Shown here piece after piece: positions 3,764-11,337 of a stretch of 64,000 bases of DNA. The translations under genes were made by a program, and so were the position numbers. Below the pieces are notes generated by a model that was not told the DNA's origin, did no database searches, and saw nothing but the letters and a program-made list of their open reading frames with translations. Source of the stretch: a virus; UHGV virus genome UHGV-1351772; one strand, given 5' to 3'. The stretch's first letter is position 1; each line of letters starts with the position of its first letter.

Positions 3764-4264
3764 TCAAAACAGCTTAAGTGTTTGCGTTTGACCACCGCTG
3801 TACAGGTCGTAACGTTTCGCCACTTCCACCGCAGTGGGGGCGTCAACGCCAGCACCTAATGCACCCAGGGCATAGTGAGCACCTGAGCCTATCGCATACG
3901 GCGGCTCTACAAACACGTAACTGGCGTATTTGTTGTCTTTGCACTTCGAGGCGTCGATAACGCGTCCGTCTGTCAAAACAGCAAGTACGATAAAATCAAT
4001 CTGCTCGGGATACGTCGTTTCGAATCTAACTCCACCCCGTTCGATACCGCCGAAACGTTCAAGCGTGAGTTCTTGGCGCACGGATTGCAATGCGGCGACA
4101 TCACCTGCCAAACCGATCGCTTTCACGTCTTCACCCAAAAGCTTCCACGACGTACCCTCAGGCGGCGTGTGAATCTTACGGTATTGCGTGGCAGCACTAC
4201 GTTCTTCCACGGTGACTTGACCGTCGCAAGCTAACGTCTTTCCGTCGAAAACAATCGTGGTCAT
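3764..4264 (-). CDS. HslV/proteasome beta-type N-terminal-nucleophile (Thr) peptidase homolog (166 aa)
   Basis: The N-terminus MTTIVFDGKTLACDGQVT parallels E. coli HslV MTTIV..AGDGQAT. Further matches are GLAGD (GFAGG) and AIGSGAHYALGALGAG (AIGSGGPYAQAAA). Confidence 0.65.
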   Translation of the reverse strand: MTTIVFDGKTLACDGQVTVEERSAATQYRKIHTPPEGTSWKLLGEDVKAIGLAGDVAALQSVRQELTLERFGGIERGGVRFETTYPEQIDFIVLAVLTDGRVIDASKCKDNKYASYVFVEPPYAIGSGAHYALGALGAGVDAPTAVEVAKRYDLYSGGQTQTLKLF

Positions 4265-4626
4265 GACAGATTTCCTAACTCATTGCCGACCTCCTGGTCA
4301 GCAGCTACCATCGAATTCGTGCAACGCGTAACATGTTCACGAATCGCTCGAGCCAAACCTTCACGAACGGCTACCAGGAGACACTCTCGATAGCTCGGAT
4401 AATGCGCAATAGGGCTAGGGATGTGTTCCACGCAATAACCATCGTGAACTTCCACCACTACCGTGATGTAAATCTCGACGGGTTGGTAAATCCGCACGCT
4501 CTTGATCAAATCAAGTAACGCTGGCTCCGTGCATCCCCAGTCCTCCGGGGCTTTTAACAGCACTGCCAACTCATCGAGCCTGTACTGAACATCCAATTCC
4601 ACGTTAGTGGTGTTTTTGGAATCCAT
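4261..4626 (-). CDS. hypothetical protein (121 aa; start moved to the ATG with a GGAG RBS)
   Basis: GGAGATTTTAAT-ATG at 4626. There is an ATGA overlap with the HslV-like gene. Confidence 0.6.
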   Translation of the reverse strand: MDSKNTTNVELDVQYRLDELAVLLKAPEDWGCTEPALLDLIKSVRIYQPVEIYITVVVEVHDGYCVEHIPSPIAHYPSYRECLLVAVREGLARAIREHVTRCTNSMVAADQEVGNELGNLS

Positions 4627-5486
4627 ATTAAAATCTCCTGTCGTGGTCTGTGTCACACCAACAGGAAATCCTGTAAAAAAATAATTCAGCTGCGTACCGG
4701 CGTTTCTCAACGGGAGTACGCACCCCTCTCGTCTTTGCGAGCCGTCAAGCTAGAGGACATCACACTGCCAGCGCTACCTGGAGCAGGGTCATTCGACGCA
4801 ACGTCGTAATTCGCATTTTGGCCGCACCTCTGGGAGCGTATCCCACCGTCGGCTGCCCGCAGGTAAGTTCTACGGACCTTTCGCCAACGTCGCTCCCAGA
4901 GGCTGCCACGGTTCACTCGGATTTTCTCATGTGGTCCACGCGTCACTGATAGCGCGGGTTCCCCAACACTCGTAAGTCGGGGAACGGTACCGAGCACCTG
5001 AACTCTGGGGATTCCAAAAATCCCTCGGGGTAAGTACGATTCGCAAATCGATTTTCAAACCCCATAGTAAAACAAACTCCAGTGTTAGGCTGAACGTTTT
5101 GTTTTTCCCAGTACACGGCGAAATAAATTCCATGCACTCGAAAAAACAACCCCCAAACCAACACCCGGTCAGGGGGCTTCGAGCTCTGCTGAATCTTCGC
5201 AGACAGAAATCGTGTTTGAGCTGTGAGCAGTAAACTCCTGAACTCCGAAAAATCTTCGTGGTTGGATTTGTAAATCATCCCACGCAAATCCTCCGAACAT
5301 ACCATAGGGTTTTAACGTTCGAAAAAGGGGAATGGGTTTTACCCCCCTCGGTCAGGTGTTCAGGGTAGACCCCCTACCCGATCCCCCAGGTGGGGATTTT
5401 ACCCTGGTGAATTACCCCGGGTTCGATTTTCGGATTTTCTGGAAAATACCGCTCACCGATCCCTACCCCCTCAGGGGGGTCAGACC

Positions 5487-5496
5487 GAGATCAGAT
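5487..5496 (+). repeat. left copy of the 10-bp direct repeat GAGATCAGAT
   Basis: Identical to 5718..5727. The two copies bracket the CG-block/A+T-core/CG-block unit. Confidence 0.9.
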
Positions 5497-5518
5497 CTCA
5501 TAATAAGGATCGCGCGCG

Positions 5519-5680
5519 TTTTATATATATTTATATATAATATATATTATATATAATAATTATTATATTAATAAATATATTAATATATTTATTTAAATAA
5601 ATAATTAAATAATACCTAAAGGTATTATTATTTTGATCCTAAAGGAATAATATATTTATAAATAAATATATTATACTATA
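5519..5680. repeat. A/T low-complexity core, about 93 percent A+T, with 5519-5614 being 96 nt of pure A/T
   Basis: Direct reading. It contains a perfect 24-nt palindrome at 5570-5593 (AATAAATATATTAATATATTTATT) and a hairpin AATACC-TAAA-GGTATT. It is bounded by CGCGCGCG (5511-5518) and by alternating Pu/Py sequence at 5676-5703 that includes an 18-bp perfect palindrome (5683-5700). Confidence 0.95.
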
Positions 5681-5717
5681 CGCGCGTGCGTACGCACGCG
5701 TATAAGGAAGAGATCTT

Positions 5718-5727
5718 GAGATCAGAT
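5718..5727 (+). repeat. right copy of the 10-bp direct repeat GAGATCAGAT
   Basis: Identical to 5487..5496. Confidence 0.9.
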
Positions 5728-6331
5728 TTTTGAGAGAGTTAAAAATTTAAGATCGATCCGAGAGACTTAGTGTCTCTCGAAGAGTATTAAAAAATTTAAA
5801 AGATCAAAAAACCAAAGCTAGAGAACTACTCAACCTGAATCTTCAGTGTGTGAAGATTCAGTAAGTTGATCAATCCAGCTGATCCGCTAGTACGCGAAGC
5901 GTGAATGTTTTTTTGATCGTCGCGGCGGCCGGTCCGCCGACCCGAGGGTGGGGTGGAACTGGTCGAGGGGAATGCCCCTCAGGCGCTCTCAATCGCGCTG
6001 TAACGAGTTAAACGGGGTTCTGGTACCCAAGTGTACCCCTTGAGGAGATTTTTGCGTCAAAATGCGTTCTAGAGCGTTTTACGATGGGGTGGGTTTTCGA
6101 CCCACTCAGGGATAGGGGTTGGCGTGACAGCTCGAACGACAAAATCGTGGTTTCATGGCGTTGAGTGAAAATAAATTCAAAACCCACAACCAAAAACACC
6201 CTCAAATTCTTCGTAGGAAGCTCTCTGACGAGATAAACGTGGGTAAGGGGTACGAACGTACCGCCTGGAAAGAAAAATGCGTTAGAATCGCTCTCAGCGC
6301 GTTTTTGATTTTTGGGCAAAAAAATAAAACG

Positions 6332-6351
6332 GGGGAGACTTCGGTCTCCCC
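6332..6351 (-). terminator. rho-independent terminator after CDS 6362..7486
   Basis: GGGGAGAC-TTCG-GTCTCCCC is followed on the minus strand by GTTTTATTTTTTT. Confidence 0.85.
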
Positions 6352-6361
6352 AGAATATTTT

Positions 6362-7486
6362 TTACAGAGTCGTCAGTTCTTTTGACGGATAGTACAGTTT
6401 CACATCGACCAAACTGTAACCGGTGGCGTAGAACACCTGATTTCCGACCGAAGCAATAAACCCTTCAGGGTCGATAACGTCAACCGAGAAATCGGAATCG
6501 AATAGCCAGGTTTCTTGTTCCCCTTCCCGTTCGAAAACGGCAGCGTAACGCCCGTATTCTGGGCCTCGGCGGAAACGAAACAGCGTTAATCCTGTCTCAC
6601 GTTCTAAGCCATAAATCACCCCATTTTCTTCGTAGATTTCAGCGCGATTACAGCGTGTAACCGTCAACAACGCAGGCCGTTGTGTCGGGATTGTTTTAAA
6701 CGGTGAAGGCCCATCGTATGTCGTTGAAACCCAATCACCGAGACTGTCTAACGCCAGTGCTCGATACGCGATAGGTGACTTGTAGTTACACAACCTGTTG
6801 CCCTCGGTGTACATCGTGTATTCGATGCGTAACGTAGTACCGATGATGTCGTTCAAACTCAGTTTGTAGTGCGCTAACTGGGCTTGTATACGACAGGACA
6901 GAATTGTACACAGGAAAGTGTGACCCTCTGTAGAACGGCACACAACTCCGTAATCGGTCACTGCCAGTAACGTGGCATCTGTTTTACGGACGGGTTCCAG
7001 GCGAAACACCTCATTTTCAGTTTCTACGAGGAACTGCGAAACCGCTTGGTTTCTGGATTTAGCTTTAATCGTATCGAACACATCACCCGCTTTTACGATT
7101 AACGGTTCTACCACGTTTACCTGAAACGGCAGCGGTTTAGTTGGGTATTGTCCCAACGTTGTAATCGTTACTGAGTTGAGTTCTGGGTCCGATGCGTCAG
7201 GATCACCAGACAACCAATACGTTAGCCATTTCGACAACGTCTGGGGAATGACGCGCGTGGTGTAAAACAGAATTTCGCCATGTAAACCTGCCTCTGCCAA
7301 TTCGCGTGCAAGAAACGAGTTGACCGCGTCGTAGGTACCGTTGCGCAAGATGTCCATACCCCCGACACGAACCAAATCACAAATTACGCCGTGTGGAAGA
7401 ACCCACATTTTGACGTTTTGATTTCGGTCGATGGTACCTTCGCGCAGCATTCTGTGCCAAACGGGTTTACGTAAGTAATTTCTCAT
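6362..7486 (-). CDS. hypothetical protein (374 aa)
   Basis: ATG is preceded by AAAGGAG. No motif recognised. Confidence 0.7.
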   Translation of the reverse strand: MRNYLRKPVWHRMLREGTIDRNQNVKMWVLPHGVICDLVRVGGMDILRNGTYDAVNSFLARELAEAGLHGEILFYTTRVIPQTLSKWLTYWLSGDPDASDPELNSVTITTLGQYPTKPLPFQVNVVEPLIVKAGDVFDTIKAKSRNQAVSQFLVETENEVFRLEPVRKTDATLLAVTDYGVVCRSTEGHTFLCTILSCRIQAQLAHYKLSLNDIIGTTLRIEYTMYTEGNRLCNYKSPIAYRALALDSLGDWVSTTYDGPSPFKTIPTQRPALLTVTRCNRAEIYEENGVIYGLERETGLTLFRFRRGPEYGRYAAVFEREGEQETWLFDSDFSVDVIDPEGFIASVGNQVFYATGYSLVDVKLYYPSKELTTL

Positions 7487-8992: not shown

Positions 8993-9232
8993 TCAATGGG
9001 GCCCTGACATTACCACGAGGTGTATAGAGTAGACCATATTTAGCGCATAGGTAGCTGACGAACCTGCTACCATCAGACCAAATACTGCAAATGCCTGTAC
9101 ATACCGTGTTTTTCGTAGTGGGAAACCTTGCGAACGTCCGTATTGTTTTATCGCTTGGTAACTCTCGCGGATCATTTTATACGTCGCTATCCACGAAAAG
9201 AACACAAGTAAATAGTAAATTGGAGCCATCAC
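8993..9232 (-). CDS. small membrane protein (79 aa, two hydrophobic segments)
   Basis: There is a 4-nt overlap with the terminase stop, which suggests translational coupling. Hydrophobic stretches are APIYYLLVFFSWIA and AFAVFGLMVAGSSATYAL. Confidence 0.55.
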   Translation of the reverse strand: MMAPIYYLLVFFSWIATYKMIRESYQAIKQYGRSQGFPLRKTRYVQAFAVFGLMVAGSSATYALNMVYSIHLVVMSGPH

Positions 9233-11337
9233 TTCATCCTCTGGCGTTGGATAAGCTCTCTTAAGCTTTCCATTGACGCCACGTTTTGTGTATCAGTGTT
9301 AAGTTGAGCAATGAGGGACTGGAGACGGTTACGAGCAGCCATTGCTTGAACCGGGTCTAATAACCCGTTTGTGGTTCGCACAAGACGCTCAATTTCCCCC
9401 ATCAGTTCCTGCTGTCGCGCCTCCTCCTCGAGTTGTAATTCCTCATCCACCCCTTCACGATTTTCGACTAAATTACGATTGCGCATCATCAATCGACTGT
9501 TGTTGATTTCATAATGCCCCAGGTTATTCCCAAGCAGCAATAACCACATCGCAAGTAACCAAGAAATCACGAGGTCGTCATGACCTGAAGCTTTGTGGTC
9601 AATACGACCATTTTTCTCCACGAGGTTAAGTATCTGGTCGATGAGTTCTCCGCAACGGAGTTTATCCGCGGATAAGCGCAACGCTGTGGTGAATACCTCA
9701 CCGTACAGTTTACGACGTTTTTCCTGGTCGGTTGAGAAACCGATATATTTACGGAATTTATTCCAGAACTTCTCAGCGTTACCAATAGGTCCACGGTGAT
9801 ACTCTTTGTAGAGATCGTCCGTACGTGAGTAGTCCTGAGTGATTCTCACAAATAAACGGCGATGTAAGTCCGTGACGCGAGACTGTAACTGCAGGATAAT
9901 TGCATCAGCCACAGACGAGCCAGTAGACCGTCGTTCCAGGATTAGTACCGTGTTAGGATATCGCACCATAAAATCCGCTAAATGAATCGCGAAAGAGATA
10001 ACGTTAGATTCGTTAACGGTTAATTTACCTGCATACTCTGCGGTCACAGAGTTAACAATAGACATGGCGATCGCGTCTCGACCCACCGCCTCAGAGGTAT
10101 CCAACCCGATGACGTGTCGGTCTTTGAGCTTCGTCATCATCTCCTCTTCGGTGTAGTACCAGTCGGTAACGTAGTTTTGTGGTGAAATATCTTTAAACAC
10201 AGCACGCATACGGGAAGCATTCATACGATCTGCATCTTCCGCTGAGAACGGCTTGTTCAGACCACCGGTAGTCCATTCACCCCCGAAGTCACGACGGATC
10301 TGGTCAGGGGTACCTTTGGCGTTCGCAATCATTGCCGCTAACTGCTCATCGCTGGTACCGAGCTGACGGTGGTTGTACTTCACGTAGAACATGATACGTG
10401 GGACTTCTGCCGTGGAGTTAGAACGGATGATATCAATGAGCTGTTTACGGGTTGGAATGTCGATATAGCGCTCATCCCACATAATCCCCGACGTCATCAG
10501 CTCGTACATGTACTTGCCTTCTTCCGTCGCTAAGTCACCAGGGGTTGTTGCGAATACGTTACCGTAAGGAACACCTTCCGCTTCGTTAATACGGCGAGCC
10601 GCTGTACCGGATGCCAGGGCTGCCGGTAGAATGTGGTGTACGTTTTTGGTAAAGGGGCCTTCGTCCGAGAACAGACGACCAGCGGTGAGTCCACGACCGA
10701 TACCGTTAGCAGATTCTGGGTCGTTTTGGCCGATACCCGTAATCAGTTTGTTACCCTGGGCTAAACACGCAAAAGTTTCGCGGTTATCTGGATCATCTGG
10801 ATGTGCTGGCCACAAGTAAGACGGTAGACCGTTACGTAGTTGCTTAAGTTTGTTAATGGTTTCTTCACGCAGTGCCGGTCCTTTTGTGATAAGAATCGTA
10901 CGAGAGTTTTCCAGAAACCGAATTAACCACAATAGTAATCCGCTCATCCCGACGGTTTTACCATGCTGACGGAGGAACTCGACGGCGGCGTCGATGTTGT
11001 TGAAGAAAATCCAATACATCGAAAAGTTACCACGGTCGATACGGAACGGCGACCCGTATTTCATACCGTCCGCAGGTACCCTGACGCACTCTCGAAACCA
11101 GTACCAAGGGTTTTCAGCACACTCGATGGCGATATACGCTTTCTGCTCGTCCGTTAGGTTTTCGTCAAAAGGATCGACCCCTTGCAGTAAAGGGTTATGT
11201 AAGGCGAGATGAATATAGTAGTGCTTTACACCCAGCTTTTTTAGGATATTTGCAAACTTGATAAACGATTTGTTTGTGGTTTTATCGTCAACAATAGCGC
11301 CTGGATAATAACGCCAGTCCGATTCACGTAGTATCAT
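9229..11337 (-). CDS. terminase large subunit (702 aa)
   Basis: Walker A-like LRQHGKT (compare T4 gp17 SRQLGKT) and Walker B-like RLFSDE. The size and a GAGGAG RBS fit. Confidence 0.8.
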   Translation of the reverse strand: MILRESDWRYYPGAIVDDKTTNKSFIKFANILKKLGVKHYYIHLALHNPLLQGVDPFDENLTDEQKAYIAIECAENPWYWFRECVRVPADGMKYGSPFRIDRGNFSMYWIFFNNIDAAVEFLRQHGKTVGMSGLLLWLIRFLENSRTILITKGPALREETINKLKQLRNGLPSYLWPAHPDDPDNRETFACLAQGNKLITGIGQNDPESANGIGRGLTAGRLFSDEGPFTKNVHHILPAALASGTAARRINEAEGVPYGNVFATTPGDLATEEGKYMYELMTSGIMWDERYIDIPTRKQLIDIIRSNSTAEVPRIMFYVKYNHRQLGTSDEQLAAMIANAKGTPDQIRRDFGGEWTTGGLNKPFSAEDADRMNASRMRAVFKDISPQNYVTDWYYTEEEMMTKLKDRHVIGLDTSEAVGRDAIAMSIVNSVTAEYAGKLTVNESNVISFAIHLADFMVRYPNTVLILERRSTGSSVADAIILQLQSRVTDLHRRLFVRITQDYSRTDDLYKEYHRGPIGNAEKFWNKFRKYIGFSTDQEKRRKLYGEVFTTALRLSADKLRCGELIDQILNLVEKNGRIDHKASGHDDLVISWLLAMWLLLLGNNLGHYEINNSRLMMRNRNLVENREGVDEELQLEEEARQQELMGEIERLVRTTNGLLDPVQAMAARNRLQSLIAQLNTDTQNVASMESLRELIQRQRMK

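Follow-up and report, generated by a model that had tools for sequence, protein, structure and literature searches.

A conserved non-coding island of SPN3US-related jumbo phages contains a predicted gene for a large structured RNA and a candidate cis-acting DNA site

The question raised by positions 4627-6361 of the virus genome UHGV-1351772 is what a jumbo phage maintains in an island without recognizable protein genes. The DNA analyzed here, referred to as the window, is a stretch of 64,000 nucleotides from a phage related to Salmonella phage SPN3US and to the Erwinia phages Asesino and phiEaH2, with about 75% nucleotide identity to relatives of this type over the structural genes. The island is bounded by the ATG (4626) of a minus-strand open reading frame (ORF) and by the terminator (6332-6351) of the minus-strand ORF 6362-7486. 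A sequence-only reading had described it as a non-coding island of three parts and had proposed a replication origin, a packaging or partition site, or a locus for structured non-coding RNAs. Our analysis indicates that this conserved non-coding locus combines two distinct elements, an RNA gene and a DNA site. The joint reading that we favor, to which we give an even chance of being correct, is that the left half holds a gene for a large structured RNA and that the center would serve as the cis-acting unwinding element of a replication origin.

The ORFs within the island (96, 120, 103, 76, and 74 aa) have no match to any PHROG or Pfam family, and a tblastx comparison of the island with the syntenic region of one relative revealed no in-frame conservation, which bears out the non-coding assignment. 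The alternative that the island consists of small protein genes that are missed or inconsistently called can point to these ORFs of 74-120 aa and to the "hypothetical proteins" annotated in some records. It is nevertheless very improbable, since family matches and a conserved frame are lacking, the annotated ORFs shift position and strand among relatives, and the substitutions in the RNA stems described below are compensatory and not codon-like. The three-part layout is recovered as well, in the GC and folding profile, in the A+T core, and in the hairpins on the right: the GC content is 49-56% at 4711-5510 and drops to 25-30% in the center of the island.

The following features define the left part of the island.

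4686-5440, minus strand: predicted gene for a large structured non-coding RNA, based on fold, covariation, and a covariance model; the 5' end is approximate and lies perhaps as far right as ~5500
4692-4722, minus strand: 3'-terminal hairpin of the RNA with a GNRA tetraloop (GAGA; tctc on the plus strand at 4705-4708), followed by an invariant GCUGA, from the alignment of the RNA 3' domain
5440-5449, minus strand: promoter-like box TATTTTCCAG (TTTTTTAC(A/G)G in most relatives) on the 5' side of the RNA gene, its position kept in an alignment of 16 sequences from all genera
4671-4681, minus strand: promoter-like box TTTTTTTACAG for the downstream gene (ATG 4626), identified by motif recurrence and forming the left limit of the RNA gene

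The segment 4680-5500 folds with a minimum free energy of -340.8 kcal/mol on the minus strand (z = -6.3) compared with -280.6 kcal/mol on the plus strand (z = -3.6), both relative to shuffled sequence, and the minus strand folds better than the plus strand by 7-76 kcal/mol in all 10 homologs tested. The earlier description of 4711-5510 as GC-rich and dense in hairpins thus agrees with both composition and minus-strand fold. Further members of the family were collected by pattern scans of viral and metagenome collections, and removal of chance hits and near-duplicates left 19 non-redundant sequences, from which the 3' domain of the RNA was aligned and its consensus structure derived with RNAalifold. 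The structure comprises 41 base pairs, 19 of which show compensatory double changes. Canonical pairing is found in 98.3% of the 757 pair cells, compared with 48.7% or less when the partners are slid by 1-3 columns, and the covariation score of 0.415 compares with values of at most 0.097 in the slid controls. In 500 column shuffles, four of the five measures never reached the observed value, and the number of pair types did so 16 times. About 119 of the 757 cells are G.U pairs; on the plus strand these cells would be A.C mismatches, which fixes the RNA strand as minus.

The 3'-terminal hairpin (helix 8) carries compensatory changes in 9 of its 14 pairs and is closed by a GAGA, GUGA, GCGA, or GGGA tetraloop in each of the 19 sequences, and in the central helix (UUUUUCGAG... 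/ ...CUNGACAAAGC) 6 of 14 pairs are compensatory. Several single-stranded or loop sequences are invariant, among them GGUACCGUGGCAGC, GAACUUACCUCCGG, UCUUGGCGGCUCGGAAAGACGAGAGGGG, CAGCCUAACACU, and UUCAGGU, and these would indicate tertiary contacts or bound partners. The RNA is divided into a conserved 3' domain (about 4686-5007), a conserved central domain (about 5007-5200), and a 5' domain that varies between lineages; owing to this variable 5' third its length ranges from about 445 nt in Huxley to about 750-800 nt in the studied phage and in MET_P1, a Seoulvirus phage with a 243-kb genome. The structured-RNA role proposed for the island is strongly supported for its left half by the covariation, by the G.U pairs in excess on one strand, by the promoter-like box that the RNA has to itself, and by the 3' hairpin.

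A covariance model of the last 148 positions of the RNA finds exactly one copy per locus (E values of 1e-21 to 7e-33) and a single copy in the entire MET_P1 genome. One match lies in a 13.7-kb contig assigned to a "MAG: Bacillota bacterium" (metagenome-assembled genome; L188, JAEWFE010000254.1), where the model scores 103 bits; this contig contains a full copy of the island at 82% identity and almost certainly derives from a jumbo phage, having been mis-binned into a bacterial genome. A cmscan search of the full stretch against Rfam 15 (4227 families) returned only tRNAs at the gathering score, and the RNA matched no Rfam 15 family at E<=10 over 4500-6450 or at E<=1 in five homologous loci. 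No description of the RNA was found in the literature either, so that the earlier failure to match the island to a known element class holds even at these permissive thresholds. On the evidence of structure and conservation, then, the left half is shown to encode a large structured RNA whose family is absent from Rfam, and its gene is predicted to be transcribed independently. By analogy with the large phage RNAs GOLLD and ROOL, we infer that its product would act in trans, as a stand-alone RNA or an RNA-protein particle made during infection.

In Kwan (1205-1714 of L003, which is given as the reverse complement) and Wellington (L091), a 169-aa ORF lies inside a hairpin loop of the RNA, on the strand of the RNA. 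It matches HNH_3 and His-Me finger families weakly, just under the Pfam curated cut-offs, and is missing from the alleles of L093 and pEa_SNUABM_11. The ORF looks like a free-standing homing endonuclease that targets a non-coding RNA gene. The usual targets of homing endonucleases are conserved, important sequences.

The promoter-like box on the 5' side of the RNA gene is one of several. The box at 4671-4681 lies between the 3' hairpin of the RNA and the next gene, and boxes of the form TTTTTAC(A/G)G also precede other minus-strand ORFs of the window (about 48004, about 56655, and about 1466). In MET_P1, the exact pattern TTTTTTACRK occurs at 9 sites, all 9 on the gene strand and 8 of them intergenic, roughly 50-165 nt upstream of genes; the site at 186488 is the box upstream of the RNA. 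A second box resembling CCTATCnTGTG often follows the TTTTTTAC(A/G)(G/T) box after 8-12 nt. The TTTTTTAC(A/G)(G/T) box, found solely on the gene strand and nearly always in intergenic sequence ahead of genes, is a candidate for a promoter class used by a phage RNA polymerase of SPN3US-like phages. The early promoters of jumbo phages are short A+T-rich boxes near -10 (PMC7598289), which makes a promoter role plausible for boxes of the TTTTTTAC type, including the one upstream of the RNA. A scan for sigma-70 promoters gave matches no commoner than expected by chance. The RNA gene looks like a transcription unit of its own, which would run from the promoter box to the GNRA-capped 3' hairpin and end just upstream of the next promoter box. 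In every genome examined, one or more tRNA genes lie 0.6-1.1 kb downstream of the RNA on the same strand; in the window this is a tRNA-Trp gene at a distance of 0.9 kb.

At least 44 GenBank records contain the most conserved block of the island, where annotation is almost always absent. The carriers belong to the genera Seoulvirus, Erskinevirus, Wellingtonvirus, and Machinavirus of the nucleus-forming family Chimalliviridae, and to the clade of the studied phage itself. An unannotated gap of ~1.3-1.8 kb lies downstream of the homolog of ORF 6362-7486 in the Seoulvirus phages MET_P1, SPAsTU, and pEa_SNUABM_29, and a gap of this size occupies the same position in Asesino and phiEaH2 (Erskinevirus), in Kwan, Wellington, and pEa_SNUABM_11 (Wellingtonvirus), and in pEa_SNUABM_9 (Machinavirus); in Huxley, also of Machinavirus, the unannotated stretch is merely about 0.7 kb. 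By blastn, the conserved blocks of the island occur in collinear order in the relatives. The sequence-only reading had proposed such a comparison with related jumbo phages, and had named ordinary protein genes at this position and an assembly or closure artifact among the outcomes that would speak against it. A collinear non-coding island is instead found in four genera, with protein genes confined to a distant fifth (see below), and independent assemblies reproduce the island base for base: a metagenome contig of 228,572 bp (CYGL01000001.1) is 99.9% identical over the island. An artifact of assembly or closure, or a decayed mobile element or intron, would account for the frequent breaks of assemblies at the core and for the homing-endonuclease ORF in the RNA gene of one genus. 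Such an origin is hardly credible, as the same sequence is recovered from independent isolates and metagenomes (99.9% in L142, and an identical core in L153), the conservation across four genera is under clear purifying selection, and neither an intron match nor an interrupted host gene is present.

The center of the island is built as follows.

5450-5511: left flank, with the G/C-run hairpin CCCCCTCAGGGGGG, GATC at 5458, 5489, 5494, and 5508, and the box CTCnTAATAAGGATC (5497-5511), from the sequence and the 16-sequence alignment
5511-5518: left CG clamp CGCGCGCG; in relatives 7-24 nt, CG-rich and mostly alternating
5519-5676: A+T-only core, 157 nt, 94% A+T, with the palindrome AATACC-TAAA-GGTATT (5611-5626) and the conserved TTGATCCTAAAGGA box (5633-5646)
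5677-5704: right clamp, 28 nt of perfect purine-pyrimidine alternation, containing the inverted repeat CGCGTGCG-TA-CGCACGCG and followed by TATAAGGAA

The unit of CG block, A+T core, and CG palindrome noted from the letters is exact in these coordinates. Its order is the same in all genera: GATC, GAGATC, and TAATAAGGATC lead to a CG clamp and 110-180 nt of nearly pure A+T, which continue through TTTTAAAAGATCCTGnAGGA into an alternating, near-palindromic CG clamp, TATAAnGAA, and further GATC sites. The box CTCnTAATAAGGATC is kept in 15 of the 16 aligned sequences. Within the window the core is the sole 60-nt stretch with at least 95% A+T, and the right clamp is the longest alternating purine-pyrimidine run; in MET_P1, the counterpart of the core is the sole run of 60 nt or more that reaches 93% A+T, and no alternating CG run there is longer than the counterpart of the clamp. 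The segment 5450-5950 contains 13 GATC sites where 2.6 would be expected, more than any other 500 nt of the window (median 1, 99th percentile 6), and in MET_P1 the GATC density likewise peaks at the core, with 9 per 500 nt (median 1, 99th percentile 4). Around the core of most homologs, GATC is present at 9-20 per kb compared with 0.8-2.8 per kb elsewhere. The GATC cluster that had been placed at 5700-6330 is thus real, but it straddles the core and is not restricted to its right side. The segment 5486-5705 appears, from its uniqueness and conservation, to be a single-copy cis-acting DNA site.

The pattern of substitution in this segment differs between the A+T arms and the clamp. L153 has a 207-nt core identical to that of the studied phage although the two islands differ by 4.4%, and in strains with 81% identity over the island the A+T arms beside the clamps are still identical. 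The right clamp of L099, L145, and L188, by comparison, has changed at 7 of 20 positions, all by transitions that leave the alternation as well as the 8-bp inverted repeat (CGTGTGCG-CA-CGCACACG) intact, and every genus has a clamp that alternates or is palindromic. Identical arms and structure-preserving changes in the clamp indicate selection at the level of sequence on the former and at the level of structure on the latter. The 28-nt run at 5677-5704 also has the length and composition expected of Z-DNA-forming sequence (at least 12 bp of CG-rich alternation), a statement that concerns the sequence level only. In all genera the A+T segment holds one or two small GC-containing palindromes whose stem is kept while the sequence changes (AATACC-TAAA-GGTATT, TATCCC-TAC-GGGATA, ATATCT-AA-AGATAT, AAACCC-GTA-GGGTTT, and TACTACTACGTAGTAGTA), and this compensatory evolution indicates that a hairpin or cruciform state matters. 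The distance from the TAATAAGGATC box to the TATAAGG box is 162, 207, or 230 nt in close relatives (studied phage, L009, and L099), the change in length being confined to the middle of the core and both ends being identical; replication slippage or assembly collapse in the low-complexity center could account for this.

The core is most likely the DNA-unwinding element of a replication origin. This reading is favored because the segment is the most meltable DNA of the genome, is bounded by clamps, carries palindromes that evolve in a compensatory way, is flanked by predicted transcription, and coincides with clustered GATC. The A+T-only segment (110-180 bp) would melt within the limits set by the two CG-rich alternating clamps, outside of which the GATC clusters lie. 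Transcription leaving the core, in the RNA gene and perhaps in the right part of the island, would drive negative supercoiling into it. In the twin-domain model, transcription feeds negative supercoils behind it. The supercoiling could melt the A+T segment and force its small palindromes, along with the palindrome of the clamp, into hairpins, which may then be entry sites for phage replication proteins. GATC clustering is typical of methylation-controlled enterobacterial sites, and together with a phage-encoded adenine methylase the GATC clusters could place the site under control of its methylation state. MET_P1 has genes for a DNA adenine methylase, RNase H, a replicative helicase, and a DNA polymerase. 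No replication origin of SPN3US-like or nucleus-forming phages was found in the literature.

Several of these properties are shared by packaging sites. In the alternative reading of the core as a pac site, the terminase would recognize the A+T core with its GATC flanks and make the first headful cut there, gated by methylation as at P1 pac, and the RNA would be an unrelated neighbor. The large terminase gene (TerL, 9229-11337, minus strand) is only 2.9 kb from the island, a center of about 200 bp has a GATC cluster on either side, the genome holds no second site of this kind, a relative encodes an adenine methylase, and several isolate records and genome-length metagenome contigs have an end in or next to the core. 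We consider a pac site unlikely on balance, as neither a small terminase nor a pac motif is known for these phages, the covarying small palindromes and melting-confining clamps are foreign to known pac sites, and a low-complexity A+T stretch also makes short-read assemblers end their contigs. Contig ends in or beside the core occur in L098/L018, L100, L039, L066, L124, L140, and L155, several of them of genome length, and the records of SPN3US and several SPFM phages begin there; the contig 3300045988_113438 has both ends at the core, with the core itself missing. These ends reflect either assembler failure at a low-complexity stretch or a physical end. A partition site, which had also been proposed for the island, finds no support.

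The 16-mer TAATAAGGATCRCGCG matched nine unrelated viral contigs, in some of which the match runs on into CG and in one family of which it falls among consecutive small ORFs; a scan of six of these loci revealed no tRNAs, and the matches were judged to be due to chance. The 16-mer TAATAAGGATCGCGCG, which is followed by more alternating CG in the unrelated phage contigs L190/L193/L196, L191, L194, and L197, one match again falling among small ORFs, probably recurs by chance as well. A likeness of the clamp to the target of an N15-type protelomerase (TACGCGCGTA-like) was rejected, as the biology does not fit and no such gene is annotated in the MET_P1 record, in which no dedicated gene search was made.

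To the right of the core, the island continues with the following features.

5705-6319: right part, conserved across genera, with hairpins at 5759-5779, 5835-5861, and 5891-5903
5712, 5720, 5751, 5755, 5802, 5868, 5881, and 5915: GATC sites of the right part
5705-6319, conserved boxes: TTAAAAATTT / TTAAAAAATTT, TGATCGTCGCGGCGG (5913-5927), and ACCCAAGTGTACC (6025-6037)
6332-6351: bidirectional intrinsic terminator GGGGAGAC-loop-GTCTCCCC; it is a strong one for ORF 6362-7486 on the minus strand and could also serve the plus strand

The hairpins and the terminator of the neighboring gene, both of which had been recognized from the letters, are present, and the layout of poly-A, hairpin, and poly-T at the terminator is kept in relatives. 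The right part consists of conserved local hairpins separated by A+T boxes and the blocks TGTTTTTAAAAGnGAATTTTTTTAAA, GGTTAAAAAACAACC, TGATCGTCGCGGCGG, ACCCAAGTGTACC, and TGGTTAAAAAGTG. It is probably transcribed, although strand tests conflict: minimum free energies in ten homologs and RNAalifold on four clade alignments point to the plus strand in two clades and show no preference, or the reverse one, in the other two. The right part would be either one or more further small RNAs or a portion of the control region; in the origin reading it would be an array of control-region hairpins and A+T boxes, or else the gene or genes for such RNAs.

The transcriptional signals around the core suggest a further alternative, in which the island is purely transcriptional and comprises two or three consecutive non-coding RNA genes, with the core as a mere spacer, the hairpin of the right clamp and its A/U-rich tract as a terminator for transcription arriving from the right, and the A+T tract as an upstream element of one or more strong promoters of the large RNA. 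Read on the minus strand, the clamp forms a perfect GC hairpin with A/U-rich sequence behind it, the CTTATTA and TTTTTTAC boxes, which resemble promoters, are found just left of the core, the right part has conserved hairpins, and an A+T-rich composition is a property of the early promoters of jumbo phages (PMC7598289). This explanation leaves the GATC clusters on both sides of the core unexplained, as well as the length and purity of an A+T run that is unique in 243 kb despite the many promoters and terminators there, the base-for-base conservation of the A+T arms, and an alternation that exceeds the needs of a hairpin, and it is therefore improbable in our judgment.

The proximity of the two elements raises the possibility that the RNA and the core form one machine, the RNA working at the neighboring site in cis or in trans as an origin primer or regulator (like ColE1 RNA II / RNA I) or a packaging RNA (like phi29 pRNA). 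The promoter box of the RNA lies about 40-60 bp from the left clamp in the 16 aligned sequences, which cover all genera, a relative encodes RNase H, and TerL is nearby. We regard this as doubtful, because transcription of the RNA runs away from the core, complementarity between the RNA and the core was not noticed, and the adjacency is perhaps ancestral synteny. A broader version, also tentative and slightly less remote, is that the island would be the origin or packaging-start module of SPN3US-type phages, with a GOLLD-sized RNA as a part of it (a licensing, priming, or packaging RNA) and a supercoil-sensing switch of A+T, Z-DNA, and hairpins. If this broader version were true, a module for origin or packaging with an RNA cofactor would be a type of viral cis-element without a described counterpart.

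The preferred combination of an RNA gene with an origin element is itself opposed by several observations. With regard to the RNA, its ends rest on motifs only, the likeness of its function to that of the large phage RNAs GOLLD and ROOL, considered below, is drawn solely from size, context, and domain organization, and in Derbicusvirus (Derbicus, Phobos, and CR5) small protein genes occupy the position of the island and the RNA model finds no match. With regard to the core, no DnaA box (TTATNCACA, with up to one mismatch) occurs anywhere in 4627-6361. The iteron-like repeats that had been reported reduce to one 16-nt repeat in two copies (5733 and 5781), with no iteron-type array of three or more direct repeats of about 17-22 bp, and Tandem Repeats Finder reports nothing outside the A+T low-complexity region. 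In MET_P1, no extremum of the cumulative GC skew falls on the island, although the skew may track gene orientation in this genome, where nearly all genes are on one strand. GATC is present at merely 2.5-4.9 per kb in the pEa9/ChrisDB/Caitlin subclade, a near-loss of the enrichment that counts against the pac reading as well. Several features of the core, namely the distance of 2.9 kb to TerL, the two-sided GATC, and the assembly ends, fit a pac site at least equally well, and the clamp hairpin with its A/U-rich sequence could be a mere terminator and the A+T tract an upstream promoter element.

The neighborhood of the island has some features of its own. The minus-strand ORF at 4264-4626, between the RNA gene and an HslV-like gene, encodes 121 aa without PHROG or Pfam matches; MET_P1 lacks a counterpart, its HslV-like gene directly following the RNA gene, and the ORF looks like a lineage-specific insertion. 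The left neighbor (3767-4264, minus strand) encodes an HslV-family peptidase (phrog_1040, E 1.5e-35), and MET_P1 (81569-83329) also encodes HslU, so that SPN3US-like phages appear, from these matches, to carry their own HslVU protease. The right neighbor (6362-7486, minus strand) encodes a protein of 374 aa whose only PHROG match is phrog_8136, of unknown function, and which has no Pfam match; the label "putative DNA ligase" given to this product in two GenBank records is supported by neither Pfam nor PHROGs. The MET_P1 record (L001) has an unannotated gap of 1.2 kb at 183,431-184,625, and two unannotated tRNA-like genes (1796-1867 and 1870-1939 of L001, minus strand; 31.9 and 39.9 bits with the Rfam tRNA model) lie beside its annotated tRNA-Asn.

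Dozens of GenBank records leave the RNA gene unannotated or place spurious "hypothetical protein" calls over it. The RNA is encoded by culturable jumbo phages of Salmonella, E. coli, and Erwinia, and amber-mutant genetics exists for SPN3US, which would make it experimentally tractable. The core is a precise, one-per-genome candidate for an origin or a pac site of Chimalliviridae, a literature description of neither having been found, and the clamp, which adjoins a tract of pure A+T, is an unusual DNA-structure signal in that selection maintains its palindromy as well as its purine-pyrimidine alternation.

When the core is compared with known replication origins, the transcription-activated origins offer one model. 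The T7 primary origin, T4 oriF/oriG, and ColE1 with RNA II have one or more promoters next to an A+T-rich unwinding element. The island resembles these in having promoter-like boxes beside an A+T element, a structured RNA beside the site (as in ColE1), and a phage RNase H. In contrast to these origins, the large RNA of the island runs away from the A+T segment, and neither a primer-processing site nor an R-loop-forming G-rich/C-rich pair was identified. With E. coli oriC and P1 oriR the core shares a GATC cluster at an easily melted A+T region and an adenine methylase, which is here encoded by the phage; the combination of an A+T unwinding element with clustered GATC that characterizes oriC-type sites is found as 157 nt of 94% A+T and 13 GATC per 500 nt. 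Unlike oriC and P1 oriR, the core has no DnaA boxes or iterons, its A+T run is much longer and purer, and its CG clamps and alternating palindromes are not features of oriC.

The packaging systems provide a second comparison. P1 pac spans 162 bp and contains TGATCA/G hexamers and an IHF site. The core is like P1 pac in its two groups of GATC around a central region, its occurrence at a single site per genome, and the plausibility of control by methylation; it differs in that its center is a 160-230-bp A+T/CG module and that a terminase small subunit is not known. The phi29 pRNA is a packaging RNA of about 120-174 nt, and like it the RNA of the island is phage-encoded, structured, and non-coding, with its gene near a terminase gene. 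The sequences and structures of the two are unrelated.

Among the known structured RNAs, group I and group II introns gave no Rfam match, and no split ORF or split tRNA flanks the RNA gene. RNase P RNA, tmRNA, 6S, and SRP RNA gave no covariance-model match, and ARAGORN found no tmRNA. The closest parallels are GOLLD and ROOL, large RNAs of phages and prophages that are "often near tRNA islands", GOLLD exceeding 800 nt and the function being unknown. The RNA of the island differs from both in that their Rfam models find no match (E<=10 for the locus and E<=1 for five homologs), in its conserved sequences, in its hosts, which are nucleus-forming Enterobacterales jumbo phages, and in the constant adjacency of its gene to the unique A+T/CG/GATC site. 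It has in common with them the size class, the encoding by phages, the proximity to tRNA genes, and a densely covarying structure, and with GOLLD also the division into a conserved 3' half and a variable 5' half. Since size, context, and domain layout are shared while the GOLLD and ROOL models remain unmatched, the RNA would be a new family of the same kind and not a member of either. Ornate phage RNAs of this sort are few, and one more unrelated family would widen the class to which GOLLD and ROOL belong.

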